From a virus: a stretch of DNA of 64,000 nucleotides. The stretch lies in the IMG/VR virus record IMGVR_UViG_3300014720_002669; one strand, given 5' to 3'. The notes under the pieces were generated by a model. The model worked only from the letters and a program-made list of their open reading frames with translations. It had not been told where the DNA came from and made no database searches. Positions 34,279 to 63,507 of this stretch are shown here, piece after piece (within the stretch, counting starts at the first letter, position 1; the number at the start of each line of letters is the position of its first letter). Both the position numbers and the translations under genes were made by a program.

Positions 34279-34737
34279 ATGTGGCTTTTACACTTCTTAC
34301 CTGACGCACTCATACTCTGGATCTGCAACATTGTATTGCTGGCAGGCGTGTTGCTGACTGTCACAGCATTTTTCATCAAGCGCATTCCTGTGATAAACCA
34401 GTACCGGACGCCTGCACAAGTCCTGGGCATCGCACTGCTGGTCATGGGCGTGTACTGGCGTGGCGGTTATGCTGTGGAACAGGAATGGCGTGAACGTGTG
34501 GCTGAAATGGAAGCCCGTGTAGCGGCTGCTGAAGCCAAAAGCGCAGAAGAAAATGTCAAAATTGTCACCAAGGTTGTGACAAAAACACAGGTAATTCGAA
34601 CACGTGGCGAAACTATAACCAAGTACATTGACCGTGAAATAATCCGGTACGATGAAAAGTTTGCGCCTGGTGGTCAATGTGAAATACCACAGGAATTTAT
34701 TAAGGCGCACAACAGCGCAGCAGAGGCACCCAAATGA
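34279..34737 (+). CDS. Inner-membrane spanin (Rz-like)
   Basis: N-terminal TMs, coiled coil, C-terminal CEIP...HN.AA; in the lysis region. Confidence 0.7.
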   Translation: MWLLHFLPDALILWICNIVLLAGVLLTVTAFFIKRIPVINQYRTPAQVLGIALLVMGVYWRGGYAVEQEWRERVAEMEARVAAAEAKSAEENVKIVTKVVTKTQVIRTRGETITKYIDREIIRYDEKFAPGGQCEIPQEFIKAHNSAAEAPK

Positions 34738-35837
34738 AAGTAAATGAAATTATATTAGAATCAGTGACTCATATGAGACCAGTCAATGAACTGGCACCCA
34801 GTCCAGGTGGTGCCGGTCCCAGCGACTATTTTCGTGTGTTAGCATCGGCCTGGTACAATCATGACATCAGTCAACTGGCTGACATTGCCAGAAAAGGTGG
34901 ATCACCCATGAAGAAAATCATGGACGCACAAGTGGCCGTGGAAAAAATGCTGCAACGTGGTGTGATTGGCAGCGACGGCAAAACACGCAAGTATGATATC
35001 TCATACAACTCGGACTTTGATGGTGTAGTGATTTCGAGTGCCGACTACTACGAGCACAGTGACTATGACGCTGCCGGCAATGAAGTTGACAGTCGCTCAG
35101 GACGTCCCTGGGGACCAAATGATTACATGGAGTTTGATGGCGACGAACTGGACGAAGGCATGTATGAAAACACAGAACTTGTGGCGGAATTTGATCTCAT
35201 TGAGAGTATCATAAACCGGCTGGCTGCTCACAACGGTGTCGAGGCTGAAGTGATCTGGGAGGATCTTGAAAGCCTCACCGAAGATGAACTGTATGCATTT
35301 GCTGTGACTTCAGAACCCATCATGGAAGGCAAAGGCGTGACAGAAGCATTTGGTTTATACGGTCCATTTACTGTGACCATCAACACCGGTGAGCGTCCGC
35401 AATCAAGAACCAAAACCAAAAAGTTCCGTAGGGAAGATGATGCCATACTGTATGCTGAAGATTGGTTGGAAGATGCTCCACAATATGTGTTCGCAACAGC
35501 CAAAGTCACTGACCCAGAAGGCAACGTTGTTTGGACCACGAATGAAAGTTTAGAAGAACAAGGTGTGGCGGAAGACTGGCAAAAGGCCAACAAACGTGAC
35601 CGTACCGCAGGCATGAGTCAAAAGGCTGTGAATGCCTATCGCAGAGAGAATCCTGGTTCAAAATTGAAAACTGCTGTGACCACCAAGCCTTCAAAACTCA
35701 AGCGTGGGTCAAAGGCCAGCAAACGCCGAAAGAGTTATTGCAGTCGCAGTCGCGGACAGATGAAAATGCACAGCATCAGTTGCGCCAAAACTCCTGACAA
35801 GGCCATTTGCAAAGCACGTAGACGTTGGAACTGCTGA
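34734..35837 (+). CDS. Modular putative internal head polyprotein with basic Cys-containing C-terminal domain
   Basis: MKVNEIILE leader; KGVTE and QGVAE linkers; KRRKSYCSR...ARRRWNC. Confidence 0.7.
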   Translation: MKVNEIILESVTHMRPVNELAPSPGGAGPSDYFRVLASAWYNHDISQLADIARKGGSPMKKIMDAQVAVEKMLQRGVIGSDGKTRKYDISYNSDFDGVVISSADYYEHSDYDAAGNEVDSRSGRPWGPNDYMEFDGDELDEGMYENTELVAEFDLIESIINRLAAHNGVEAEVIWEDLESLTEDELYAFAVTSEPIMEGKGVTEAFGLYGPFTVTINTGERPQSRTKTKKFRREDDAILYAEDWLEDAPQYVFATAKVTDPEGNVVWTTNESLEEQGVAEDWQKANKRDRTAGMSQKAVNAYRRENPGSKLKTAVTTKPSKLKRGSKASKRRKSYCSRSRGQMKMHSISCAKTPDKAICKARRRWNC

Positions 35838-40110: not shown

Positions 40111-40899
40111 ATGACTGACTACTATGCTGCACTAGGTGTACCAAAAACTGCCACTGCTGACGAAATCAAACTGGCTTTTCGTCGGCTGGCCGGTACGCAT
40201 CATCCAGACCGAGGTGGCGATACCAAAAAATTTCAAACCATTCAACAAGCCTATGCCACGCTGGGCGACGAACAAAAACGAACAGAGTACGACAACCCCA
40301 GACCACAGTTTTCAGGCTTCTCAGGATTTCACGGTCACCCCGGCGGTGTCAACATCAATGAAATATTTGGCCAAATGTTTGGCCATGGATTTGCACAGCA
40401 AGCTCGACGAAATCATGTGCGTATGACTCTGTGGATTTCGTTGTTGGACGTGGCCACAGGCGGCCGACGCACTGTGAGCCTGGGCACTCAGCAAGGAACC
40501 AGCACAGTGGAAATAGATGTGCCGCAAGGTATCATGGACGGTGACAATGTTCAATACGAAGGCATTGGTCCCGGTGGTGCCGATCTTGTGATCCAATTTC
40601 GAGTGCATCCAAACTCACAGTGGCAACGTCAAGACCTCAATCTCATAACTGAACGAACCATAGGCTTATGGGATTTGATACTGGGTGCCGATCTAGAAAT
40701 GCATACCATAACTGGTCGCACACTGACTGCCAAAATTCCGCCCAAGACACAACCGGGAACCAGTTTGCGACTCAAAGGCCAGGGCCTGACCAATCGCAAT
40801 GGTCAAGTTGGTGATATCTTTGTTCGTATACAAGTTCAAATTCCCGATGCGATTGCACCAGAAATCATCACTGCTATACAAAATAGCCAAAATAAATAA
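40111..40899 (+). CDS. DnaJ-class chaperone (CbpA-like)
   Basis: J-domain HPD and DnaJ_C; no zinc finger. Confidence 0.92.
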
Positions 40900-40905
40900 T
40901 CCAGG

Positions 40906-40934
40906 TTGCTCTGTTTTGTAGATAGCTGTATACT
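40906..40934 (+). promoter_or_regulatory. Sigma70-like promoter
   Basis: TTGCTC-17-TATACT with TG. Confidence 0.55.
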
Positions 40935-40957
40935 AAACATCACACGCAAGGACGTAA

Positions 40958-43207
40958 ATGAATAACCCAGAAATAGAACACATTGTTGAACAAGCAGTAA
41001 AGATTGCTCGAGAGAAAAAACATGAATATGTGTTGACTGAACACCTGTTGTTGGCCATGATTCGTCATCCAGCTCTGCGTCGGACCCTGGACAAGTACGG
41101 AGTAGAGATTACCCGGATGGATCAAGAAGTTGATGCCTATCTCAACGGACTCATGCACCTGGTGAAAGATCACGAAGATCTACAACCAAGAAAAACTCAA
41201 ACCCTGGAACGACTGTTCAATCGAGCCAATGTGCAGGCCATGTTCACTGGACGTAGACAACTGTCTGTGATAGACATTTATCTTTCGATCATGGCTGAAA
41301 CCAACAGTCATGCACACTACTTCTTGTTGAAGTACGGCGTGAAGAAAACAGATTTTGCAGAATTCTATCAGAAAAATTATGCCCAGAATGATGTGCGCAT
41401 GACTGATGTACAGGCCAATGACATCTTGACTGAGTACTGCACCAATCTCACTGAGCAGGCCAAGAATGATCAACTGGAACCCTTAATTGGACGCCAAACA
41501 GAACTGCACGAAATGATCACTGTGATGGCTCGACGCTTCAAAGCCAATGTGCTCATGGTGGGTGATCCTGGTGTGGGCAAGACCTGCATTGTGGATGGAC
41601 TTGCACAGGAAATCATTGCCGGACGTGTGCCCGAGTTTATCAAGAACCACGAAGTATGGGGTTTGGAAATTGGCAGCTTGCTGGCAGGATCCAAGTACCG
41701 CGGTGAGTTTGAAGAAAAGTTCAAGGCTGTGATTGCTGCCTTGGAAACCAAAAAGAAATGTATCCTGTTCATTGACGAAGCACACACCATGAAGGGTGCA
41801 GGATCCGGCTCAAACAGCAGTCTGGACTTTGCCAACATGCTGAAACCTGCAATCACCAAAGGCAACTTGAAAGTGATTGCGTCAACCACCTGGGAAGAAT
41901 ACTACGAGTCATTTGAGAAAGATCGCGCACTCATGCGTAGATTCTATAGACTCAGCATTGACGAGCCCGATACTGATACCACAGAAAAAATTCTAATAGG
42001 ATTGAGTCTTAGACTGGAAAAATTTCACAATGTTGAAATTGACACCGAAGCTATAATGGCCTCTGTGGAACTGGCCAACCGCTACATTCATGACCGTAAG
42101 AATCCTGACAAAGCCATTGACTTGCTGGATGCAAGTTGTGCCCGTGAGCGTGTGAAAGATGAAGGCACTGTTGTGATCACAAAAGAAATGATTCAGGCAC
42201 AAGTGAGTCGTGTGGCAGGTGTGCCTTTGGATCGCTTGCAGAACGAACGATCGGCAAAGATTGTAGATTTGGAAAGCAACATCAAGCAGAAGTTGTATGG
42301 ACAAGATTCGGCAGTGGAGGCTGTGTTGGAACGTGTATACATCAATTTTGCCGGCATTGGCAACGCAAAACGTCCTATCTCAAGTTTCTTGTTTTTGGGC
42401 CCAACTGGTACAGGCAAAACTGAACTGGCCAAACTCTTAAGCGAGCACTTGGAAATGAAACTGTTGCGATACGACATGAGTGAGTATCAGGAAAAGCACA
42501 CAGTCAGTAGTTTGATCGGTGCACCTCCGGGCTACGTGGGCTTTGAAGATGGCAATGTGGGCGGTGGCAAACTGATTTCAGACATCAGCAAAAATCCCTA
42601 TGCCATCATCTTGTTTGATGAAATTGAAAAAGCACATTCAGATGTGACCAACATCCTGTTGCAGATGTTAGACGAAGGACACATTACGTCAGCCAACGGC
42701 AAACGAGTGGATGTGAAAAACTGCATCATTATCATGACCAGTAACTTGGGCGCACAGGCCAATGACGCCAACAACATTGGGTTTGGTAGCTTGGAGAAGT
42801 CAGGCGAAGAAGATCGTGCAATGAAAGACTTCTTCCGCCCAGAACTGCGCAATCGTATTGATCGAATCTGCAAGTTCACCAAATTGGACACACTTGCCAT
42901 CAAGAAAATTGTGTTGAAGTTTGTGGACGAACTCAAAGCCAGTATGACACACAAGAACATTAAATTGTTGTTGAGTGAGCCGGTGATTGACCACTTGGCT
43001 GACAAGGGTTATGACAGCAAAATGGGCGCACGTCCCTTGAGTCGCAAGATTGATGAGCTGATCCGTGTGCCACTCAGCAAGCGGATGCTGTTTGATCGCT
43101 TGGAGAATTGCACAATCACCGCTGTGATGCGGGATGATGCTGTGGAATTTGAAATTGAACAAGACGCTGTGCCTACAATAAATGCCGAAGGAATCATCAT
43201 TGTATAA
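40958..43207 (+). CDS. clpA: ATP-dependent Clp protease ATP-binding subunit ClpA
   Basis: Clp-N domain, GDPGVGKT, GPTGTGKT, LIGAPPGYVG, IGF loop. Confidence 0.93.
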   Translation: MNNPEIEHIVEQAVKIAREKKHEYVLTEHLLLAMIRHPALRRTLDKYGVEITRMDQEVDAYLNGLMHLVKDHEDLQPRKTQTLERLFNRANVQAMFTGRRQLSVIDIYLSIMAETNSHAHYFLLKYGVKKTDFAEFYQKNYAQNDVRMTDVQANDILTEYCTNLTEQAKNDQLEPLIGRQTELHEMITVMARRFKANVLMVGDPGVGKTCIVDGLAQEIIAGRVPEFIKNHEVWGLEIGSLLAGSKYRGEFEEKFKAVIAALETKKKCILFIDEAHTMKGAGSGSNSSLDFANMLKPAITKGNLKVIASTTWEEYYESFEKDRALMRRFYRLSIDEPDTDTTEKILIGLSLRLEKFHNVEIDTEAIMASVELANRYIHDRKNPDKAIDLLDASCARERVKDEGTVVITKEMIQAQVSRVAGVPLDRLQNERSAKIVDLESNIKQKLYGQDSAVEAVLERVYINFAGIGNAKRPISSFLFLGPTGTGKTELAKLLSEHLEMKLLRYDMSEYQEKHTVSSLIGAPPGYVGFEDGNVGGGKLISDISKNPYAIILFDEIEKAHSDVTNILLQMLDEGHITSANGKRVDVKNCIIIMTSNLGAQANDANNIGFGSLEKSGEEDRAMKDFFRPELRNRIDRICKFTKLDTLAIKKIVLKFVDELKASMTHKNIKLLLSEPVIDHLADKGYDSKMGARPLSRKIDELIRVPLSKRMLFDRLENCTITAVMRDDAVEFEIEQDAVPTINAEGIIIV

Positions 43208-44853: not shown

Positions 44854-44869
44854 TTGCTAAATACAGTTT

Positions 44870-45604
44870 ATGACAACTGTAGTAATCATGCCCGGCGGGT
44901 TTCATCCTTTTCATGCAGGGCATGCAGCTTTGTATCAGTCAGCTCGGCGTACATTTCCAGATGCAGATGTATATGTGGCTGCTACCAATGACACATCAAC
45001 AAGACCTTTTCCATTTCAAATAAAAGAAAAACTGGCTCAATTGGCCGGAGTTGACCCAGGTCGATTCATGCAGGTCAAAAGCCCTTTTCAAGCCGCAGAA
45101 ATAACAGCACCTTACGATCCCGCCCGTGATCAATTGATATTTGTAAGATCAGAAAAAGACGCAAACAAACCACCACAGGCCGGTGGCGTCAAAAAGAACG
45201 GCGAACCATCATATCTGCAGCCGTTGTTGAGTGCAAAAAAACTAGAACCATTTGCAAAGCATGCTTACATGGCCTATTTGCCCACTGTGGAATTTGGTCC
45301 AGGCATGACTTCGGCTACGGAAATACGTAACGAATGGCCTACGCTAGATGAACAAGGTAAATTGGATCGTGTGATGAGCCTGTATCCCCGAACACAGATC
45401 AATCCCCGGTTGGCTGCCACAGTGGTCCGAATGTTGGACACTGCCATTGGTACAGAAGTCTCTGAAAATCAAGGCTGGGCTGCCACTTACGAAGCAGTGG
45501 GACTCACTGCTGGCACCGGCGTCACAGGAGGCATGCATGCCTCATATCAAACACAATACAATCAACCCACCACAGAAGACTATGTGGAAGAATACCGGTC
45601 GTAA
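44870..45604 (+). CDS. Cytidyltransferase-like (HIGH) nucleotidyltransferase
   Basis: PGGFHPFHAGH, TSATEIR. Confidence 0.8.
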   Translation: MTTVVIMPGGFHPFHAGHAALYQSARRTFPDADVYVAATNDTSTRPFPFQIKEKLAQLAGVDPGRFMQVKSPFQAAEITAPYDPARDQLIFVRSEKDANKPPQAGGVKKNGEPSYLQPLLSAKKLEPFAKHAYMAYLPTVEFGPGMTSATEIRNEWPTLDEQGKLDRVMSLYPRTQINPRLAATVVRMLDTAIGTEVSENQGWAATYEAVGLTAGTGVTGGMHASYQTQYNQPTTEDYVEEYRS

Positions 45605-46605: not shown

Positions 46606-46620
46606 CGGTAAATACAGCTT

Positions 46621-49600
46621 ATGAACATTCATGAGCTGGCTACTTACAATCTTGATGATGCTGTAAAGTTTCATCAGCGACTCAATCCTGTACTTTGGGC
46701 AAGAGACGAACATCTCTTGCCTGAAGTGCGCAACAAGTTGTTAAAAATAGCAGCAGACTTCCAAGAATTCCTGGGAGTAGAGGATCTCAAAGTAAAAGAC
46801 ATCACTGTGTCTGGATCCAATGCTGCTTATTCTTACACCAAACAATCCGACATAGATCTACACCTGGTGGTCGAAATGCCCAACGATCCGGTGTATCAAG
46901 AGTTGTTTGCTGCCAAAAAATATCAATACAACACCGAACATGACATCACCATAGGTGGTGCTGACGTTGAACTGTATGTGCAACCAGATGATCAGCCACA
47001 TCACAGTCAAGGCATTTATTCAATCAAGAACTCAGACTGGGTAAAAGTACCACAACGCAAACGCAGTCAAATAGATGACACCTGTGTGTTGGCCAAGGTA
47101 GATGATCTGGCCACCAGAATCAAATCTGCCATTGCCAGCCAGGATAGATCAGTAATGGATTCGTTGTGGAAAAAAATCAAAATCATGCGCCAGAGCGGTT
47201 TGGAAAATCATGGCGAGTTTGGCTGTGAGAATGTTGCATTCAAACTGCTGCGAAACAATGGCAGCATTGGCGCATTGAAGTCAGCTATAACAGCAGCACA
47301 AGATCGTGAACTGAGTTTGCCGCCTAAAAAACGTGTGCGCTATGGATTTTCAGAAGACGTGACTTCCACCCCTGACGGAGTCAGTGCCAGCACCAACATG
47401 TTTTTGAACGAAACACCTGTGAGCAATGTTGTGCAGTCTTTTGTGCAAGATGTAGTGCAACGCCTGGGCATTGAAAACATGCCTGAAGTAGTTTTGCACG
47501 ATGATCCTGACTGGAGCAAACAAAACAACAGCTTTGGTCAATACAATCCTGACACACGAACTTTGCATGTGAGTTTGGTTGATCGCCATCTACTGGACAT
47601 ATTGCGAACAGTGGCACATGAGCTCACTCATTGCCGTCAAAACGAGCTGGATACATTGCCAGATCATGCTGGAGAAACTGGCAGTCGTTGGGAAAATCAA
47701 GCCAATGCTCAAGCAGGCATACTCATGCGTGACTTTGCAGATGCCAATCCTGAGTATTTCAACGAGTCATACACTCAAGCAAAAAGTTTGCAGTCATCCA
47801 TGAAGACCTTTCGTGCCAAAGTACGCATCAAAGATCGATACGGTAGTCCGGCTATTGAAGCACAGGTAGTGGCCAGAAACCATGACATGGCCAGACAAAT
47901 GTTGAGAGCTCAGTACGGTCCTGACAGTGTGATCAGCACAGTGACCGAGCTTAAAGAAAATGCATCGGGCTATATTCCCAAGAACCGACGAGAAGCAGCC
48001 ATGCCTCGGTATGCCATGGCTCTTTCAGTGGATATTAAACCTGGCGAAGTTGGCAGACAAGCCAACAAACTTGCTCTGAAAACTGGACGCAATGGTGAGC
48101 CTGGTTTGCTGCAACCCGATGCACAGAATCTCTTGCGTGAGTTCAGCGAATTTGTGACAGAACAAGATCAGTTGTTTGAAATCACCATGAGTCCTTCAAG
48201 CCTGAAGAAGTTGAGTGCGCAGACTGGTGCCTTGGCCGGCATGGAATTTGAAATGATTGTGCCCGGTACCGGGGATGATGACGGCGATCTAGAACCTGAC
48301 TACGACTTTGATGAACGTTGTCGCAGCATTCAGGATGCCCGTGATTTTTTCTATGACGGTGACTACAACGGTCGTCGAGATATTCAACGCATGAGTGATC
48401 GCATGCAGAATGACTACGCAGAATGGTTGTATGAAAGACTTGACACCGACTTTACCAACAACAGTGAAAATCTCATTAGTGAGTGGATCTCAAACAATGT
48501 GGACGAATCAAAGTGGAATCCTGACGATCTTGAAGGCGAGGCTCGTCAGGAAGCCCTGGCGGAATTTGTCGCCAATGTTGATGCTCGTCCCAGCAGTGAT
48601 TATTATCAACAGGCCCTGGACGAGTATCGTGAAGAAAATCAGGGCAGTTATGACGAAAGCGACTGGTTGGATGCCGAAGATCTAGACCTCATGAGTGGCG
48701 TTGAAAACGCCTACAATATAACCTGGCCACATTGGCGCAGCACAGGTGGCGGTGAAGTCAGCACTGAGGAAGTGGCCGACAGTTTCAGCAACGCAGTGGG
48801 CCGTCCTTGCCGAGCCAGCAGCAGTTATCACTCAAGCCGAGTACCACGACCCAGCAAAACCAATGTGAGTTATATTGTGGAACCTGACAGCAGCCTGGAA
48901 CCAGATGATGCCAATGACTCTGGCCTGGAGTTTGTGAGCCCACCCCTGCCCATTGAAGAACTGCTCAGTGATTTGAACAAAGTTAAAAAGTGGGCTGACA
49001 AGACAGGTTGCTACACCAATGATTCAACTGGCCTGCACATCAATGTGTCAGTACCTGGTTGGTCTGGCGGCTCAGAAGGCCTGGACTATGTGAAACTGGC
49101 AGTGTTGTTAGGTGACGAATATGTGCTGGATGCATTTGGTCGCGCAGGCAACACCTATGCCAAGTCGGCCATGGGCAAGATTCGTTCAATAATCAAACAA
49201 AATCCTGCCAAGGCAGAAGAAATGCTGGAACGCATGAAGTCTGGCATGGATCAACTGGCCAGCCGCGCCATACACTCAGGTGCCACAGAAAAATACACGT
49301 CAATCAACAACAAAAATGGCTACATTGAATTCCGCAGCCCAGGTGGCGACTGGTTGGATGCCAACTTTGATCAAATTGAAAACACCTTGCGACGTTTCAC
49401 AGTGGCTCTAAGTGCTGCTGTTGATCCCCAGGCCTACAGACAAGAGTACCTAAAGAAACTGTATAAACTTCTGGATGTCAAGAGTGAAAAAGATTCCTTG
49501 AGTTATTTTGCACGATATGCCGCAGGCGAATTGCCCCGAGCCGCGCTGAAGAGTTTTGTGCGTCAGGCCCGACTGGAACGTGATATACAACGTGGCAAAA

Positions 49601-51582
49601 CAGGCGAGGAAGAATTCAAATGGGAAGTTGGCAGACCAGGTTATGGTGCTAGTATCATTGTCCGAGCCAAAACCAAAGAACAAGCCATTGACCGAGCCGT
49701 GCAACCAGATGGATACCCCGACTGGGCCAGTGCCAGAAGTCAACTCACAGCCCGGCCCATAGGACCAGTCGACACCGCCCCAGTCAGAGCCACTGCAGGT
49801 GAACCCCAGGCCGTTGGACAACAAGGCAACTGGGGCATTTGGATGACTGGTGAGAATCGTTTCAGCCGAGCACCAGGCCAACCGGACCCTTCTGTATATC
49901 GTAGATTTGCCAGTCGTGAGGCGGCTGAACAATACATTGAACAACAACGTCAAACGTACCCCGGTATGCGTACCGACATTGAAGTGCGTGAGATTGAACC
50001 CAGTGCCGCAGCACAGGCCATGGGACAACAAGGTGCAGCCATGCTGGGCGATCGACCCAGCAACCCCGATGGCAACTATGTGATCACGCCCGAAGGAGAT
50101 CGCACCAGCGTTTACTATCGATTCCAAGCAGTGGACATTGATGATGCCAACACAGTGTTGCGAGCCTGGCGACAGCAGTATCCCAATCAAGTGTGGTTGG
50201 CTCAACGCGACGACAGCAGAACGTTGGGACAACCGCCTGTGCCAGGATCTACCCTGGACCTACAACGTCAACGACTTGCGGCCACACCTGCATATGGTTT
50301 TAGAGATTTATTTTCAACCACCCCAGATCAACAGCAAGGCGGCAGACCTCATGATCCCACAGGACGCTATGCCATTGTGGCACGCAGCGACACAGCAGTG
50401 CATGGACGCACAGGCGGTCCAGCCCCCTACTACTATTTCAGATTCAACATGCAGAATCTTGAAGACCAAGGCCACGGACGATATGTTCTACAGGCCTGGG
50501 CTGCCAGAAATTCAGTGAACACTGATGATTACATGGTGGTTGATACCACTCAATATGCAGATGATGCTGCTCAAGGTGGCACAGTGGATGTGGCCACAGA
50601 CCGACCAGCACAGCGTACAGGCGGTGAGTTTACTGGTGAGTGGCGGGTCCTAGTCAACGGCCAAGAAGTGTATAGATTCAGTGGTGCAGGCAACAGTCAA
50701 GCCGATGCTAACAGAGTTGCCGCTGATTGGTTGCGTCGCAATGGAATGGGGGTGAGTGGCGAAGGCTTTGAAGTGTATCCGGTGATGGCAGAAAGTCTGC
50801 AAGAGGCCAAAGGCAACCGTAGAAAGTTTGCTGATGGCTATTTGGTGTTTAGTGATCATTTGTATGACAGACTACGCGATCACAGCATCAGTCAAGACGC
50901 CGTTGAGCAATTGTTAAGAAAACTGGAAGTGCGCAGATCTATTGATTTAATTCGAATGCCATACATTGACTTTGTAGTCAAAACTCCAGATTTAGCATTG
51001 GCCATTGCTAAAACACGTGACCAAAATGACAACACAGCGTTTGTTGTCAGCACAGTGCGTCAAAATTTGCGCTCAGGACCTGACCAAGATGTAGTTTATT
51101 TAGAAGATATGCCACAGCCCAGTCACGGTCCAGGACAGATCAAAGATCTAAATGAACCCTTGGGGCCAGAGTCACCACCCCAAATGCCCGCGGGCACCAT
51201 CAAAGTAGATGTGTCAGACATGTATGACTGGTATAAATTGGGACAAAAGATATCAGACCTGGACAGCATCCGGCCTGGAGAATTGGGTTCAGGACCACCA
51301 TCAACTGTGTTTGCATTTGGCTCAGAAGACCTAAAGAACATGTACAGTCATGCGCTCACACGACTGGGATTGAAGACACATGATTTGGATGAGCCTGGCG
51401 AAGAGGACATTGACGAAAACTTTGCAGACGGCCGGAATCCACAAGACAAGGGAGATAGTGCTAGGCATGGTATACCAAAGAAGGCCTCATTAGCAAAGTT
51501 AGACAAAATAGGACATGGGTCAGGCCGTAAAGCACAATTAGCCAGATGGCAGGCGAATATGAGACGTGGTCGTGCTAAATAA
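46621..51582 (+). CDS. 1653-aa polyvalent protein: Pol-beta NTase, HExxH zincin, amidoligase, small repeats, RelE-like module
   Basis: GSNA...SDIDLH; AHELTH; GMEFE / EPDSS / GLEFVSPP / TGLHIN / IEFR; SDHLYDR. Confidence 0.8.
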   Translation: MNIHELATYNLDDAVKFHQRLNPVLWARDEHLLPEVRNKLLKIAADFQEFLGVEDLKVKDITVSGSNAAYSYTKQSDIDLHLVVEMPNDPVYQELFAAKKYQYNTEHDITIGGADVELYVQPDDQPHHSQGIYSIKNSDWVKVPQRKRSQIDDTCVLAKVDDLATRIKSAIASQDRSVMDSLWKKIKIMRQSGLENHGEFGCENVAFKLLRNNGSIGALKSAITAAQDRELSLPPKKRVRYGFSEDVTSTPDGVSASTNMFLNETPVSNVVQSFVQDVVQRLGIENMPEVVLHDDPDWSKQNNSFGQYNPDTRTLHVSLVDRHLLDILRTVAHELTHCRQNELDTLPDHAGETGSRWENQANAQAGILMRDFADANPEYFNESYTQAKSLQSSMKTFRAKVRIKDRYGSPAIEAQVVARNHDMARQMLRAQYGPDSVISTVTELKENASGYIPKNRREAAMPRYAMALSVDIKPGEVGRQANKLALKTGRNGEPGLLQPDAQNLLREFSEFVTEQDQLFEITMSPSSLKKLSAQTGALAGMEFEMIVPGTGDDDGDLEPDYDFDERCRSIQDARDFFYDGDYNGRRDIQRMSDRMQNDYAEWLYERLDTDFTNNSENLISEWISNNVDESKWNPDDLEGEARQEALAEFVANVDARPSSDYYQQALDEYREENQGSYDESDWLDAEDLDLMSGVENAYNITWPHWRSTGGGEVSTEEVADSFSNAVGRPCRASSSYHSSRVPRPSKTNVSYIVEPDSSLEPDDANDSGLEFVSPPLPIEELLSDLNKVKKWADKTGCYTNDSTGLHINVSVPGWSGGSEGLDYVKLAVLLGDEYVLDAFGRAGNTYAKSAMGKIRSIIKQNPAKAEEMLERMKSGMDQLASRAIHSGATEKYTSINNKNGYIEFRSPGGDWLDANFDQIENTLRRFTVALSAAVDPQAYRQEYLKKLYKLLDVKSEKDSLSYFARYAAGELPRAALKSFVRQARLERDIQRGKTGEEEFKWEVGRPGYGASIIVRAKTKEQAIDRAVQPDGYPDWASARSQLTARPIGPVDTAPVRATAGEPQAVGQQGNWGIWMTGENRFSRAPGQPDPSVYRRFASREAAEQYIEQQRQTYPGMRTDIEVREIEPSAAAQAMGQQGAAMLGDRPSNPDGNYVITPEGDRTSVYYRFQAVDIDDANTVLRAWRQQYPNQVWLAQRDDSRTLGQPPVPGSTLDLQRQRLAATPAYGFRDLFSTTPDQQQGGRPHDPTGRYAIVARSDTAVHGRTGGPAPYYYFRFNMQNLEDQGHGRYVLQAWAARNSVNTDDYMVVDTTQYADDAAQGGTVDVATDRPAQRTGGEFTGEWRVLVNGQEVYRFSGAGNSQADANRVAADWLRRNGMGVSGEGFEVYPVMAESLQEAKGNRRKFADGYLVFSDHLYDRLRDHSISQDAVEQLLRKLEVRRSIDLIRMPYIDFVVKTPDLALAIAKTRDQNDNTAFVVSTVRQNLRSGPDQDVVYLEDMPQPSHGPGQIKDLNEPLGPESPPQMPAGTIKVDVSDMYDWYKLGQKISDLDSIRPGELGSGPPSTVFAFGSEDLKNMYSHALTRLGLKTHDLDEPGEEDIDENFADGRNPQDKGDSARHGIPKKASLAKLDKIGHGSGRKAQLARWQANMRRGRAK

Positions 51583-51589
51583 TGTTATC

Positions 51590-52186
51590 ATGGCACACGT
51601 TTATATCATCACAAACAAAATAAACAATAAACAATACGTCGGAGTGACCAATAACTCACTTCAAGAAAGATGGAAAAGTCATCTGTATGACAATAAGATC
51701 ATTAGCAAGGCTATCAAAAAATATGGCAAAGAAAACTTTTCCATAGAAGCAATACATGAATGTGATACAATGGATGAAGCGTACATTCTTGAACCAAAAT
51801 TTATTATTGAACATAATACCAAATACCCAAATGGATACAATGTATCGTCGGGAGGCAAAGGATCGCAAGTTGGTAAACGCAAGCCCACTCCAGATCATGT
51901 CAAGCAAAAAATAAGTGAATCAATCAAGAAAAATCATTACTGGAACAACTTGTCTGAAGAACAAAAAGAAAAATGCAGAGAAAGTTGGCGGGCAAACAAT
52001 CAGTCTCGTATAGGGCAAAAAAGAAGTTCATATAACAATGGATTATTCAAAAAAACTGTTTGGATCAACAACGGCGAACAGAGAAAACGAGTTCCAGAAT
52101 CTGATATAAATGACTGGATATCAAATGGGTGGATACGCGGGCACATGAACGGTGTAGTCAACATGAAATTTGGACATAAGAAATGA
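51590..52186 (+). mobile_element. GIY-YIG homing endonuclease
   Basis: HVYIITNKINNKQYVGVT...RWKSH...IKKYG...GYN; AT-rich. Confidence 0.9.
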
Positions 52187-52611
52187 GAAATCTCATCAAC
52201 CTAATCGAAGCCAAACAACGTGGTTGTCCCTTGGCCACACATGACATAGATGAAAACTTAAAGAATCGTCAACGAGCCATTGACGACTATCACTATGGTC
52301 CTGCCAATCCTGACCGTGCTGAAGACTACTGGGCCAAGAGTGCCCGGGGATTCAAAGTCAGTGTGGCCACTGCTCGAACCATGCAGTGTGGCAACTGTGC
52401 GGCCTTTGACGTCAGCGACAGCATGCGAGAATGTATCGCTCAGGGCATACGCGGTGATGAAACTGCGGTGGATGCCAATGCCAGTATCAACGGGGCTGAC
52501 CTGGGCTACTGCAACTTCTTGCACTTCAAGTGTGCTGGCACACGTAGTTGCCGTGCTTGGATCACTGGTGGTCCCATCACTGAAAAAGACAAACACAAGA
52601 GTGCAGATTGA
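52183..52611 (+). CDS. Cys-rich hypothetical protein, putative internal head protein
   Basis: MRNLINLIE leader; CGNC, GYC...C...C..W. Confidence 0.75.
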   Translation: MRNLINLIEAKQRGCPLATHDIDENLKNRQRAIDDYHYGPANPDRAEDYWAKSARGFKVSVATARTMQCGNCAAFDVSDSMRECIAQGIRGDETAVDANASINGADLGYCNFLHFKCAGTRSCRAWITGGPITEKDKHKSAD

Positions 52612-52620
52612 GACCTTGCA

Positions 52621-53199
52621 GTGAGACACCACGAAATCACTCAAGAAGCATCGCCCAACACCTGGGCAGGCAGTTTTACTCCTGACCTGGTGGCCAGCAA
52701 GACCTGGTTGACCACACAGTTGAAAAAACAACTGGCCGGTGCGTCAGCTGGCGACGTCTATGTGCTGGGCAGTTGGTGGGGCAACACAGGAGTGTTTATC
52801 CAGCAGGCCGGCATTGAGTTTGATCGACTGATCATGGTAGAACGGCGCAGATACTTGTTGGCCAGCACCAAGATGCTGTTGAACGACCTGTGGCAACAAG
52901 GACGCTTGGTATTGTGGCATCAGGATGCTGCCAACATCCAGTATCCCACCAATCGAACCATCACAGTGATCAACACCAGCAGCAATGAAATGCCCAGAAC
53001 TTGGATCACTCGAGTGCCCCGGGGCACACTCACAGTGATACAGTCAAGGGACAATGTCAAGGATGTCAAGGTCATCACTGACACAGCAGCACAGTTTTAT
53101 GCCAAGTTTCCCTTGAAAACCACAGTGTACTGGGGCGAACGCCGACTGCGAGATCCAGAAACACGCTACCGACGCTGGATGAAGATTGGCTATAAATAA
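52621..53199 (+). CDS. Methyltransferase-like protein with CTS-like leader
   Basis: VYVLGSWWG, VINTS; MRHHEITQE. Confidence 0.6.
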   Translation: MRHHEITQEASPNTWAGSFTPDLVASKTWLTTQLKKQLAGASAGDVYVLGSWWGNTGVFIQQAGIEFDRLIMVERRRYLLASTKMLLNDLWQQGRLVLWHQDAANIQYPTNRTITVINTSSNEMPRTWITRVPRGTLTVIQSRDNVKDVKVITDTAAQFYAKFPLKTTVYWGERRLRDPETRYRRWMKIGYK

Positions 53200-53205
53200 A
53201 CAACT

Positions 53206-53559
53206 ATGACGTACAAAGAAATTCTTGAAGCCTGCTGGACTGGTTATCGCCAAGCAGGCATGAAAAACAAAGGCGGGCGCCAGGTGCCCAATTGCGTGCC
53301 TGTGCGCGAAGCCGAAATAGAAGAAAATCTTCGTGACTGGTTCAAACAAAAGTGGGTGCGTTTTGGTCCTGATGGAAAAATCCGTGGCGACTGTGCTAGA
53401 GGAAGTGAAAAGGAAGGCAAGCCCAAGTGTTTGCCCCAGGCCCGGGCGCACGCACTGGGTCGAAAAGGTCGTGCCAGTGCAGCGGCTAGAAAACGGCGTG
53501 AAGATCCCAACCCCAACCGTACAGGAAAGGCCATCAACGTGGCAACTAAAAAGAAATGA
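53206..53559 (+). CDS. Two-module basic protein, putative internal head protein
   Basis: TATAAATA; MTYKEILE|ACW...NCVP; IEE|NLRDWF...PKCLP. Confidence 0.75.
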   Translation: MTYKEILEACWTGYRQAGMKNKGGRQVPNCVPVREAEIEENLRDWFKQKWVRFGPDGKIRGDCARGSEKEGKPKCLPQARAHALGRKGRASAAARKRREDPNPNRTGKAINVATKKK

Positions 53560-54707
53560 TCATAAGCGAACTATTTGAAGAGCCACAACAGTGCCCCGAA
53601 TGCGGTGGCATCAGTTTCTCAGACTTGATCCTGGCTGAAAAGAAAGACGCCTGCTACCACAAGGTCAAGGCATCAGCCAAGGTATGGCCGTCGGCCTATG
53701 CATCCGGACGCTTGGTACAGTGTCGCAAAAAAGGTGCCGCCAACTATGGCAACAAATCAGAAGGTGTATCAGAAGCACCACTACCTGGACAACGTCGAGG
53801 CCCATTAGATTTGCAACCACTGGAAGGTGGTGGTGTTGGTGGCGGTGGTGGTTTCGGTGGCCCAACTCGAAGTGGTCCTTCACAATTTTTTGGTCCCAAA
53901 CCCGGGTCACGTGAAGCATCTGTTGCTCAGCCCAATCCCAACACTATGACGGTGAAACAAAGTCCAAACCCTGACTATCGCTCCCCATCTCAACAATCTC
54001 AAACCACAGGTGATAAACCAAAAATCAAAGTCAATCCTGGTGAAACCGTACCTCAGGCCATAGAACGCACAAAAACCCAACAAGAATTTGGCAAGTTCCT
54101 ACAAGGGCAAAGTGGTCAAACATTTGGCGCCGGCGCTGGCCGTGGCTCAATAAATCCAGCGCCAACAAACACCATGAACAACACACCGGTCAGTGTTAGA
54201 AATAAGCCATCTGCTATGAATTCCATGGCCAGAGACTTGACCAAGACCCCCACGTCAACTAGACAAAACACTCAGACTGAGCCAGTCAAACAATCTGAAC
54301 CAGTCAAACAACCTGATCCGTTTGACTTGCCACTTGACGTTGGTGCAGCACGTCCAGGTTTTGACGGTAGAATGGGCTCAACACCAATGCCAAACAGAGC
54401 AGACAAACAGTCATCCATGCTTGGAAAAGCAGGCAAAACACTGGGATATGGAGCAGCCGCTTATGGTGCTGCTGACTTAGGTTCACGTGCCCTGGACTAC
54501 TATGATCAAAATTATTCTGAGGTTCCTTATGTTCCTCAGATCAAGGAAGCCAAAAAACAACCACCCGAAGTGGAATATGATGACGAATATGATGCCATGG
54601 TGGCCAGAGTTAAAAAGTTGGCCGGACTGGGTCCGCTTAAAACTGTGTACGATCCCAAACGACGTCAGTATCGCAACCAGCCCACAGTCCAACAGCCTAA
54701 AAAATGA
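53556..54707 (+). CDS. Modular putative internal head polyprotein
   Basis: MIISELFE; LAE|KKDACY...WPSAYASG; EGVSE linker; RVKKLAGL. Confidence 0.7.
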   Translation: MIISELFEEPQQCPECGGISFSDLILAEKKDACYHKVKASAKVWPSAYASGRLVQCRKKGAANYGNKSEGVSEAPLPGQRRGPLDLQPLEGGGVGGGGGFGGPTRSGPSQFFGPKPGSREASVAQPNPNTMTVKQSPNPDYRSPSQQSQTTGDKPKIKVNPGETVPQAIERTKTQQEFGKFLQGQSGQTFGAGAGRGSINPAPTNTMNNTPVSVRNKPSAMNSMARDLTKTPTSTRQNTQTEPVKQSEPVKQPDPFDLPLDVGAARPGFDGRMGSTPMPNRADKQSSMLGKAGKTLGYGAAAYGAADLGSRALDYYDQNYSEVPYVPQIKEAKKQPPEVEYDDEYDAMVARVKKLAGLGPLKTVYDPKRRQYRNQPTVQQPKK

Positions 54708-55309
54708 GAGCACAGGAGTTTGTCATAGAGCGCAAAAAAAGCCGCCGAAAAAAATCCAGCCGGCACGGTGGATATTTCTTTCCAGGATATGCCTACTATA
54801 GCAGTGGTGGCGATTCCAGTGAAGGCGGTGGAGACGGCGGCGGCGAATCACGTTCAGGCACACCGGAAGGCAAACGTATTGCAAGAAAGCCTGGGCAACC
54901 AGCAGCATCAAAAAAACATTCAGATCTTTACACAGATGAGAATCCTCGTGGCACCATCACCGGTTTGAAATTTGCCACGGTGGAAGATGCTCGAGCCAGT
55001 GTAAGTAAAATACGAAACAGTGGCCGCAGTCATGCACACAAGATACAGGCAGCTGTGGCCATGGAACAACGAGCCCGTGCAGCCGGCAAAAGTGATGCAG
55101 CAGCAGTGTATAGGCGATTCATTGACGCCAACAAAAAAACTGAAGAACAGCAATTAGACGAACTCAGCTTCCTAGGATCCCAATGCACCAAAGACTGCTC
55201 AGGTCACAGAGCCGGATACGAGTGGTCAAAACGCAAAGGACTACGTCAGGCCAACTCATGGTCACCCAGTTTCAACAAAGGCGCTGGCCTGGCAGTGGCA
55301 GGAAAATAA
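54704..55309 (+). CDS. Modular putative internal head polyprotein
   Basis: MRAQEFVIE; DLYTDENP module; LDE|LSFLGSQCTKDCSGH module. Confidence 0.7.
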   Translation: MRAQEFVIERKKSRRKKSSRHGGYFFPGYAYYSSGGDSSEGGGDGGGESRSGTPEGKRIARKPGQPAASKKHSDLYTDENPRGTITGLKFATVEDARASVSKIRNSGRSHAHKIQAAVAMEQRARAAGKSDAAAVYRRFIDANKKTEEQQLDELSFLGSQCTKDCSGHRAGYEWSKRKGLRQANSWSPSFNKGAGLAVAGK

Positions 55310-61971: not shown

Positions 61972-63507
61972 ATGCTGATAAACGACTTATTCAACAATAA
62001 CAAACAAGGTGTGGCGGAAGGCAGGTTTGATGAACCACTAACAGGATGGCATATTGTTTATCGTAATTCAGGTAATCCAGTTCATGCTACTCCCAGTTTT
62101 GAAACCAAAGAGCAAGCACAAAAGTATCTAATGACACGAATGTTTGCCAATCACCAAGATTACAAAGTAGTTCATACCGCAGGTGTAGGTGTGGCGGAAG
62201 GTGAAGTCATTCCATTCAAGAGGCCCCAGTCACAGACCGCAGTGTCTTGGCAAAAACTGCCCAAAGATGTATTGACCCTGGCAAATGATTGGTACTGGGC
62301 CGACTACGAAGGTGGTGGATCTGCTGCCATAATGGATCCCAAAGGGCTAGGCAGCGGATTTGCAAATCAAAAAAAATATTTGGGTGCTCAACTGCAACAA
62401 CGAGGATGGGCCATTGACTTTGATGACGAATTTGAAAATGTTGTATTGAAAAACAAGCAAGGTCAAACAATTTTGTTGCCCATTGAGGATGCACAGACTT
62501 TCTCGGGCTGGGCCACGGGCATCAATCTTGTCACAGAGCAAGGTATGGCAGAAGGCAAAGCCGATTACAACTTTGATATTGAGGATTTGAAACGCCTTGA
62601 GCAAATTAGAGATCTAGCAACACTAAAAGCACAAGCATTAGAATTGATCAGTAAACCCAGTGCCAAACCAATGAAACCAGAAAAAGTTGAATGGTTTAGA
62701 AATGCTCTGAATCGCATGGACAGTCCGTTAAAAGTCATAAAGTTAATGTATGATTTGTTGCTCAGTGGCGAAGGAAAAGCCGTGGTCGGATCCAGGTCAT
62801 CAATGAACCCCAACACTTATCGTCAGAGGTTTGGTGAGCAAGGCATTGTGGAAAATCAAGATTGGATGAAAGATTTAGCAGCCAAGGCCGCTGCCATGTC
62901 CAAGCCTGGCACACCATATGTGCCACCAAAGCAAGACGCTGAAAAGGCACGTCGTGATCTCACAGCACGATATCCCAACATTGATGAACTGGTCGCGGCT
63001 GCTGAAAAACGTCGTGATCCCTACTATCAATATGCCGAAGGCCCAGCCTACTATCGGGGCCGCGAAGCCGAACATGAATATCAACGACTGCGACAGATCC
63101 AACGTGTGATTCAAGGTTTGAACGAAATGAACTTTGGCGGTGTAGGCCAAACCACAGATTCAGCCACTGGCGATATAACCACCAGTTTCAATCAAGGTCC
63201 GTTGTCTGTGTCGCAGACCAAAACGCCTGGCGGTTATACAAAACAAACTGATCAACAAGTCAACCTGGGCACAGCAACGCTGGGCGCACGAACGGTTGGA
63301 CCCAACATTGGCGCAGGTCAGTTGGCTGGTACCACAACCAAGACTGCCACAAACAACATTACCGGACAGGCCAAACAACAAGTCAAAGGAGTTGGCTTTG
63401 GTGGTGCCACAGGTGCCACAGTGGGCAAAAACTACGTTGATCAATACAGCGTAAATGAAAACGTGGCACGCATGCAATATCTGGCAGGTATTCGACCAGC
63501 CCGATAA
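61972..63507 (+). CDS. Cassette-like polyprotein with four GVAE-type linkers
   Basis: KQGVAEG, GVGVAEG, EQGMAEG, EQGIVE; ends RMQYLAGI. Confidence 0.75.
   Translation: MLINDLFNNNKQGVAEGRFDEPLTGWHIVYRNSGNPVHATPSFETKEQAQKYLMTRMFANHQDYKVVHTAGVGVAEGEVIPFKRPQSQTAVSWQKLPKDVLTLANDWYWADYEGGGSAAIMDPKGLGSGFANQKKYLGAQLQQRGWAIDFDDEFENVVLKNKQGQTILLPIEDAQTFSGWATGINLVTEQGMAEGKADYNFDIEDLKRLEQIRDLATLKAQALELISKPSAKPMKPEKVEWFRNALNRMDSPLKVIKLMYDLLLSGEGKAVVGSRSSMNPNTYRQRFGEQGIVENQDWMKDLAAKAAAMSKPGTPYVPPKQDAEKARRDLTARYPNIDELVAAAEKRRDPYYQYAEGPAYYRGREAEHEYQRLRQIQRVIQGLNEMNFGGVGQTTDSATGDITTSFNQGPLSVSQTKTPGGYTKQTDQQVNLGTATLGARTVGPNIGAGQLAGTTTKTATNNITGQAKQQVKGVGFGGATGATVGKNYVDQYSVNENVARMQYLAGIRPAR
62003..62020 (+). 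repeat. Dispersed linker repeat AACAAGGTGTGGCGGAAG
   Basis: Identical to 35557-35574; the core recurs at 62187-62201; variants at 62539 and 62836. Confidence 0.85.

Follow-up and report, generated by a model that had tools for sequence, protein, structure and literature searches.

A giant polyvalent protein of a putative T4-like jumbo phage as a candidate internal head polyprotein cut by the prohead protease

The stretch of IMG/VR virus record IMGVR_UViG_3300014720_002669 analysed here (64,000 nucleotides, hereafter the window) carries on its + strand an open reading frame (ORF; 46621..51582) that is open for 1653 codons. Its product, which we label P0001, is a genuine polyvalent protein that unites a nucleotidyltransferase (NTase), a zincin peptidase, an amidoligase, five small domains and a RelE-like module. 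Synteny with a 349-kb IMG/VR record, G004, suggests that the source is a T4-like jumbo phage of roughly 350 kb. On the strength of comparisons among homologues and related genomes, we consider it moderately likely that P0001 is a capsid-packaged "internal head" polyprotein matured by the prohead protease. P0001 would then be synthesised late and incorporated into the core of the prohead, where a gp21-type (Peptidase_S77) protease would cut it after glutamate at hydrophobic-x-Glu module borders; its fragments would remain inside the capsid and reach the host together with the DNA. We infer late expression, packaging, cleavage and injection, as well as every effector activity of P0001, from the observations set out below.

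Polyvalent proteins combine two to fifteen unrelated effector-type domains in a single polypeptide of a phage or conjugative element; their delivery with the DNA has been predicted, and processing by an internal zincin has been proposed (Iyer et al., 2017; PMC5512222). P0001 resembles them in its unrelated domains within one chain, including a zincin metallopeptidase (MPTase), a Pol-beta NTase and a BECR-fold RNase-like module, and in the shuffling of its modules, while its homologues share ParB, lysozyme/chitinase, NUDIX, deaminase and GNAT domains with the published examples (PMC5512222). These homologues number more than 1,186 metagenomic proteins, many of them encoded on contigs of 340-365 kb. 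Across them the N-terminal 60% is conserved and the remainder is mosaic, such that modules of P0001 are exchanged for ParB, chitinase plus LysM, NUDIX, dCMP deaminase, GNAT or M48 domains (module-presence counts given below refer to 180 collected family members). A megablast search of the P0001 gene against 50,697 phage records returned no match, and tblastn brought up relatives of single modules only, namely of the NTase (T4-like cyanophages, huge phages) and of the amidoligase (RsoM2USA, Atu_ph07). The family departs from the published polyvalent proteins in its conserved hydrophobic-x-Glu junctions, which would fit a prohead protease; no junction motif came up when PMC5512222 was searched by terms for processing. 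It is further defined by an amidoligase core and a universal basic NFADG tail, the word "amidoligase" being absent from the text of that paper.

The evidence that carries our reading lies in the manner in which modules are joined across these homologues. The residue that precedes NFADG (position P1 of the putative cleavage site) is Glu in 42/42 distinct contexts, whose upstream modules are mutually unrelated, and 40/42 have V, I, M or L two places earlier (P3). Glu likewise precedes NASGYIPK in 29/29 contexts and MPQPS in 12/13, and upstream modules as unrelated as ParB, NUDIX, deaminase, GNAT and RelE-like domains each finish with a hydrophobic-x-Glu of their own. Because the raw ends of high-scoring segment pairs (HSPs) were too noisy for this purpose (Glu at 17% vs 7% background), we relied instead on tests of sharp breakpoints and of junction classes. 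A breakpoint counted as sharp where identity was high ahead of it and absent beyond it and where 10 or more pairs supported it; the set obtained in this way was unbiased. The motif [LIVMFY]xE closes the shared part at 60 of the 142 distinct sharp-breakpoint contexts against a background of 2.3%, an 18-fold excess; Asp in the place of Glu was found at 0/142, and Gln, Lys and Arg occurred at background. The P3 residues at the breakpoint sites with Glu were L (32), V (17), I (4), F (4), M (2) and Y (1), and junctions family-wide can be described by Glu at P1 and L, V, I, M, F or Y at P3. By junction class, 175/310 carry the motif vs 24% background, the exceptions lying mostly between small repeated domains. 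Some junctions hold tandem sites, for example VDE/NFAE/PSE/ (a slash after Glu marks the putative scission point throughout). The preference for Glu over Asp at junctions is clear. No DNA repeats of at least 13 nt link the P0001 junctions to other genes of the window, and a recombination linker conserved at the DNA level is therefore unsupported for this ORF.

Within P0001 itself, the initial annotation had proposed eight x-x-E processing sites, and each is present at the position given: FSE245, LNE264, FNE382, LKE446, LFE520, LQE1395, YLE1495 and IDE1599. It had also suggested that predicted structures be compared with these sites. For residues 1-1000, AlphaFold modelling from an alignment of 89 sequences places the NTase at about 31-231, followed by a segment with a predicted local distance difference test (pLDDT) score below 50 (232-264) and a confident zincin (265-380). 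Confidence is then low from residue 381 to exactly 521, where the amidoligase begins and runs to about 990; its acidic helical region (590-700), with a pLDDT of about 90, contains eight x-E motifs that had not been selected. A second model, of residues 1001-1653, shows the five small domains, a dip at 1391-1400 and a very confident domain at 1400-1497, after which low-confidence segments (1498-1563 and 1591-1617) give way to terminal helices. All eight sites fall in segments of low pLDDT (<50) or at domain edges: within 232-264, 381-521 and 1591-1617, at the dip over 1391-1400, and where the RelE-like fold ends. The coincidence of sites with borders is not significant in P0001 alone; it is significant only across homologues.

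The fold assignments made earlier from the letters alone were sustained to differing degrees. The NTase shows the GS...DxD motif (G65-S66 and D77-I-D79, conserved in at least 90% of homologues), and AAD(9) adenylyltransferase is a weak Foldseek match (probability 0.87); its Pfam score for NTP_transf_2 lies just below the cut-off (E=4.6e-4, 20.9 bits vs 21). Its homologue P0040 carries precomputed PF18765 and PF01909. The zincin was borne out by its HELTH residues H333, E334 and H337 together with E358, invariant in 89 homologues, and has only weak Pfam matches (eCIS_core and the DUF6782 metallopeptidase). The amidoligase was likewise upheld: Amidoligase_2 (PF12224) scores above its gathering threshold at residues 714-909 (E=2.7e-6, 27.9 bits vs 22), with weak glutamine synthetase matches in Foldseek. 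The five small repeats reappear as the five small domains of the second model, of which R3 and R4 are related (E=7e-6). Resemblance of the next module to RelE/BECR-fold RNases holds as a consistent weak likeness: residues 1404-1488 align to RelE, YafQ, RegB, ParE, YoeB and HigB in a structure search at Z 4-5.9 (all below 8), a profile search against the PDB gave RegB 2hx6 at E=0.68, and Pfam scores are below threshold (REGB_T4, 15 bits vs 27; DUF4258, 12.9 vs 25). Since membership in the REGB_T4, DUF4258 or PBECR profiles is lacking, we call segment 1396-1495 RelE/RegB-like only, and not a family member. This module occurs in only 4/180 family members; its H, R, K, T and Y residues are invariant in 14 sequences, as is its terminal YLE (14/14). 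Foldseek searches with the two large models gave no match at E <=0.001, only consistent weak families.

The remaining segments are of interest chiefly for their ends. The short spacer after the NTase retains its terminal FL(x)E in 123/123 regular-expression matches and is present as a single copy in P0001, while in homologue P0103 (residues about 245-300) the spacer SPDGVxPTTxMFLxE is tandemly triplicated in a form that looks like redundant cleavage cassettes. Homologues without module 383-446 keep one site, xLEE/SASGYIPK. The module that follows ends in LFE, LGE, LDE or ISE in 137/137, and an insertion hot-spot lies near residue 497, P0046 and P0103 carrying extra modules after GEPGLL. Homology breakpoints peak at residue 1395, where 42 HSPs end, and 65 HSPs start at residue 1497. 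The NFADG module also terminates small proteins led by a sequence like the T4 capsid-targeting sequence (CTS), such as P0135. Modules 383-446, 447-520, 1496-1599 and 1600-1653 matched nothing in Pfam, PHROGs or the ESM Atlas. As a separate observation, the tetrapeptide FADG stands shortly after putative sites in two unrelated modules (residues 1403-1406, RRKFADGYL, and 1601-1604, E/NFADG), and may be a P'-side or neo-N-terminal signal.

A protease of the appropriate specificity is encoded by relatives. The window is collinear with 236-302 kb of G004 at about 70% nucleotide identity, and G004 holds a T4-type head block comprising a portal (E=1e-105), an acidic core protein whose sequence opens with MNRFEQLIE, a Peptidase_S77 of the gp21 family (G004 positions 84690-85328), an LxE-rich scaffold and a capsid protein of the Gp23 type (E=2e-97). 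Peptidase_S77 was detected (E about 1e-24) in 8/10 large related records, and in 6/7 of those that are >=90% complete. In T4, gp21 cleaves after Glu at L/I-X-E, with Asp blocking processing (PMC9026906); it also frees the internal proteins of the 10-residue CTS MKTYQEFIAE and shortens Alt at its two termini (PMC9026906, PMC8442874). In the capsid protein of G004, [LIVM]xE occurs at residues 7, 19, 34 and 42 and next only at 389, and its site 42, LKE/NAS, is identical to P0001 site 446.

Leaders and virion data point in the same direction. The genes with CTS-like leaders that directly follow the polyvalent gene (Table 1) have counterparts in G004, where ORFs starting MRANEFVVE, MRAQEFVGE, MRANEF and MRASEF occupy 291389-294900, after the homologous gene. 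Hydrophobic-x-E within the first 10 residues is not enriched among ORFs of the window (about 11/67 vs a rough chance of ~14%), and only leaders of the specific MRAxEF and M-x3-E-[ILF] types carry meaning. An exhaustive HMMER search with the RelE-like module found only 17 relatives, of which 10 of the 13 retrieved start with MRAxEF and most carry ParB, chitinase or the NFADG tail after an invariant YLE end. Small CTS-led proteins and the giant chain thus draw on common modules, a common junction motif and a common tail. A domain of ~86 residues is shared between ORFs 53206 and 53556 and the S-CREM2 virion protein gp160 (ORF160). ORF156 (gp156) of the T4-like cyanophage S-CREM2, a stand-alone NTase-like protein of 237 residues that is 37% identical to P0001 residues 15-236 (tblastn E=3e-29 to 5e-39), has been identified among the proteins of the virion through mass spectrometry, with 6 unique peptides (PMC10665884). 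Stand-alone cyanophage NTase homologues read MKKLISE/L (S-CREM2) and MRHLESRTKHLISE/L (S-CRM01) at the position that aligns with the P0001 leader MNIHE/L, of which I3, E5 and L6 are >90% conserved; ORF156 resembles module 1 in its ISE/L and differs in its lack of downstream modules. A three-gene synteny with S-CREM2 was considered and dropped, its cytidylyltransferase gp154 having no tblastn match in the window.

The predicted products of cleavage comprise residues 1(6)-245, 246-264, 265-382, 383-446, 447-520, 521-1395, 1396-1495, 1496-1599 and 1600-1653. These would correspond to an NTase of ~28 kDa, a zincin peptidase, one or two small pieces, a ~97 kDa amidoligase with the five small domains, a RelE/RegB-like RNase, a piece of 104 residues and a basic tail peptide of 54 residues, the spacer 246-264 probably being lost. 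The amidoligase and small domains (521-1395, ~875 residues) would stay one fragment because no E-site separates them. The initial annotation had pictured a viral-style polyprotein matured into about nine injected host-takeover or anti-defence effectors. The general picture is supported in part, by the polyvalent architecture, the conserved junction motif, the S77 protease of relatives and the virion location of a module-1 homologue; the count of nine was too literal, given that 246-264 is a spacer, that 447-520 and 1496-1599 are mostly linker-like segments of low confidence, that 521-1395 would be a single fragment and that few family members have module 383-446 (18/180) or module 1396-1495 (4/180). 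Nor does the evidence favour a self-encoded protease of the viral style: it favours the prohead protease, which the annotation left unnamed, with the internal zincin as a rival.

That rival deserves consideration, as autoprocessing by an MPTase is a published proposal for polyvalent proteins (PMC5512222), and the zincin of this family, found in 163/180 members with its HExxH and E358 invariant, could in principle cut junctions in the capsid or after injection with no involvement of the prohead protease. We regard such self-processing as unlikely: small modular proteins led by a CTS but devoid of a zincin carry the same motif at their junctions (trans action of the zincin may be invoked here), this motif equals the S77 consensus and matches the propeptide sites of a relative's capsid protein, and a strict P1 Glu that excludes Asp is documented for gp21-type proteases. 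Equally to be weighed is the absence of any proteolysis, such that P0001 works as one chain, like N4 vRNAP and ArdC, and hydrophobic-x-Glu is a structural or recombinational trait of portable modules, for example helix or strand caps or cassette borders. Several polyvalent proteins are delivered uncut (PMC5512222), and many conserved hydrophobic-x-E motifs lie inside folds (YQE94, IVE754 and YIE903 are 100% conserved); by column conservation in a global multiple sequence alignment, junction sites were not separable from such buried motifs. An uncut chain nevertheless seems improbable to us in view of a junction Glu that is invariant, and never Asp, behind non-homologous modules, of the redundant tandem sites and triplicated spacer, and of P0001 junctions that bear no DNA-level repeat. 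It is more doubtful still, and indeed very improbable, that P0001 is a non-packaged cytoplasmic multi-enzyme protein of, for example, nucleotide or cell-wall metabolism, with the motif as a family-wide linker bias. This would suit a gene that is distant from the head genes and adjoins chaperone/AAA+ and radical-SAM genes, as well as a product without a canonical 10-residue CTS, but it sits poorly with the NTase homologue in the S-CREM2 virion, with the CTS-led genes that adjoin the polyvalent gene in two phages, and with a module set (ParB, chitinase/LysM, NUDIX, RelE-like, zincin) typical of injected polyvalent proteins. These alternatives account less well for three observations: junctions behind unrelated modules that take Glu and not Asp, the agreement with sites of the capsid protein, and the recurrence of the rule in CTS proteins that lack a zincin.

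Maturation by the prohead protease faces difficulties of its own, which we set out together as points that weigh against it. The motif is short: P0001 holds 28 [FLIY]xE motifs vs about 19 expected from composition, a modest excess, and because the initial annotation chose 8 of the 28, the motif alone in P0001 proves nothing. Furthermore, 15/28 lie within folded domains and six further inter-domain linkers, around the small domains, have no such motif. The breakpoint contexts are not phylogenetically independent, and nominal p-values therefore overstate the case. P3 is often V, F or Y vs the L/I of T4, and the leader, at 5 residues, is weakly CTS-like vs a CTS of ~10. An S77 gene was not found in the 64-kb window, and in relatives the P0001 gene lies ~200 kb away from the head genes. 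The intact zincin in the chain could itself cut the junctions. Finally, IMG/VR record G002 (locus L002, 342,865 bp; CheckV completeness 99%) encodes a family member 53% identical to P0001 and gave no match to S77, Gp23 or the T4 portal; G002 is probably an incomplete record rather than a counter-example, or else its head block may be very divergent.

If P0001 is indeed processed by the prohead protease, its nearest parallels would be the internal head proteins (IPs) and Alt of T4, with which it shares the cleavage motif, S77-containing T4-type head genes in relatives and CTS-like leaders of neighbouring genes (PMC9026906, PMC8442874). Its basic tail peptide resembles the basic T4 IPs, and Alt is an enzyme trimmed at both ends. 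The T4 proteins are, however, single-module and lose terminal propeptides only, whereas up to about eight internal sites would split the P0001 chain; T4 also has L/I at P3 and a longer leader, where P0001 often has V/F/Y at P3 and a leader of 5 residues. A second parallel is provided by the head and inner-body proteins of phiKZ, 201phi2-1 and SPN3US, which are cut by gp175/gp245 at S/A-X-E (PMC9026906, PMC5694885). On this reading, P0001 would have in common with them a jumbo-phage source, a large number of ejected head proteins, cleavage after Glu, redundancy of sites and, for some proteins, several fragments that are retained. The phiKZ type differs in the clade of its protease and in small rather than hydrophobic P3 residues, and shuffled multi-enzyme polyvalent proteins do not figure in the descriptions of its substrates; tblastn found no sequence homology between the phiKZ, 201phi2-1 and SPN3US substrates and P0001.

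Separately, polyvalent proteins, CTS leaders and prohead proteases specific for Glu have all been described already, and our literature searches found no description of polyvalent effectors joined with a T4-like Glu-specific prohead protease. We give an even chance to the broader proposal that T4-like jumbo phages of the P0001 lineage use the prohead protease for a combinatorial effector cassette system. Any module ending in hydrophobic-x-Glu could be placed after a CTS leader or inserted into the giant chain, and would then be packaged, freed in the capsid and injected, with the basic NFADG peptide serving as a common tail akin to internal proteins. Were this true, hundreds of metagenomic module types would become candidate injected anti-defence or takeover effectors whose boundaries are readable from sequence. 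Confirmation would explain how a 180-kDa multi-enzyme chain is delivered as separate active proteins and why its modules shuffle freely, and the rule of hydrophobic-x-Glu module ends, never Asp, would delimit effector modules in >1,000 uncultured jumbo-phage proteins. It would also represent the predicted natural multi-cargo version of the T4 CTS/gp21 packaging system, already used for protein delivery.

Table 1. Positions of the polyvalent protein gene, its modules and the leader-bearing genes that follow it (window coordinates; aa, amino acids).
Feature	Position	Strand	Remarks
Polyvalent protein gene	46621..51582	+	1653 aa; >1,186 homologues
Module 1, aa 1-245, Pol-beta/ANT-like NTase; starts MNIHE/L, ends FSE/	46621..47355	+	NTP_transf_2 just sub-cut-off; phrog_36119 E=1e-44; folded part about aa 31-231 (AlphaFold)
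19-aa spacer peptide, aa 246-264, between FSE/ and LNE/	47356..47412	+	pLDDT <50 over 232-264
Module 2, aa 265-382, zincin metallopeptidase, HELTH + E358; ends FNE/	47413..47766	+	Invariant residues; pLDDT 76-89
Optional small helical module, aa 383-446; ends LKE/	47767..47958	+	In 18/180 family members
Low-confidence module/propeptide, aa 447-520; starts NASGYIPK, ends LFE/	47959..48180	+	pLDDT <50 up to residue 521
Glutamine-synthetase-like amidoligase domain, from aa 521 to about 1000	48181..49620	+	Amidoligase_2; AlphaFold fold 522-990
Five small beta-beta-alpha(-beta) domains, aa 1001-1395 (domains 1001-1390); end LQE/	49621..50805	+	AlphaFold model
Putative RNase module resembling RelE/RegB (BECR), aa 1396-1495; ends YLE/	50806..51105	+	pLDDT 93-97 over 1400-1497
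Module aa 1496-1599; starts (D)MPQPS, ends IDE/	51106..51417	+	In 91/180 members; mostly low pLDDT
Basic C-terminal NFADG module, aa 1600-1653	51418..51579	+	In 90/180 members
Genes with T4 CTS-like leaders MRNLINLIE, MRHHEITQE, MTYKEILE, MIISELFE, MRAQEFVIE	52183..55309	+	Directly downstream of polyvalent gene

Several further features of the window may be recorded in their own right. The + strand ORF 61972-63507 (511 residues, starting MLINDLF) consists of short modules split by QGVAE/G, GVGVAE/G, QGMAE/G, QGIVE/N, LNE/ and VNE/; it appears to follow the junction rule of P0001 and has no zincin. ORF 34734-35837 (+, 367 residues) has the leader MKVNEIILE/, an acidic middle with many hydrophobic-x-E sites and, after EEQGVAE/, a basic, Cys-containing tail. 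Upstream of the polyvalent gene, ORF 44870-45604 (+) begins in the manner of an HxGH-type nucleotidyltransferase (GGFHPFHAGH) and has a weak PHROG match to a cytidyltransferase; the cytidylyltransferase of S-CREM2 is virion-associated and encoded two genes upstream of the NTase homologue (PMC10665884). A T4-late-like TAAATAC, 13 nt upstream of the P0001 start, was not used as evidence of late expression because its count is near chance (8 occurrences of the 7-mer on the + strand of the window vs ~6 expected from a rough composition estimate). The sequence TAAATACAG(T/C)TTATG stands ahead of the starts of ORFs 44870 and 46621 (44858-44872 and 46609-46623) and may be a T4-late-like -10 element of near-leaderless mRNAs, the 7-mer not being enriched in the window. 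Between the polyvalent gene and the CTS-led cluster lies a GIY-YIG homing-endonuclease ORF (51566-52186, +; phrog_314, E=2e-33) with a GTG start, which overlaps the final 17 nt of the polyvalent gene. Lastly, a J-domain-like protein followed by a 749-residue two-AAA+ Clp-like "ATP-dependent protease" (phrog_4871, E=6e-236) is encoded at 40111-43207 (+), and the two look like a phage-encoded chaperone or unfoldase pair.

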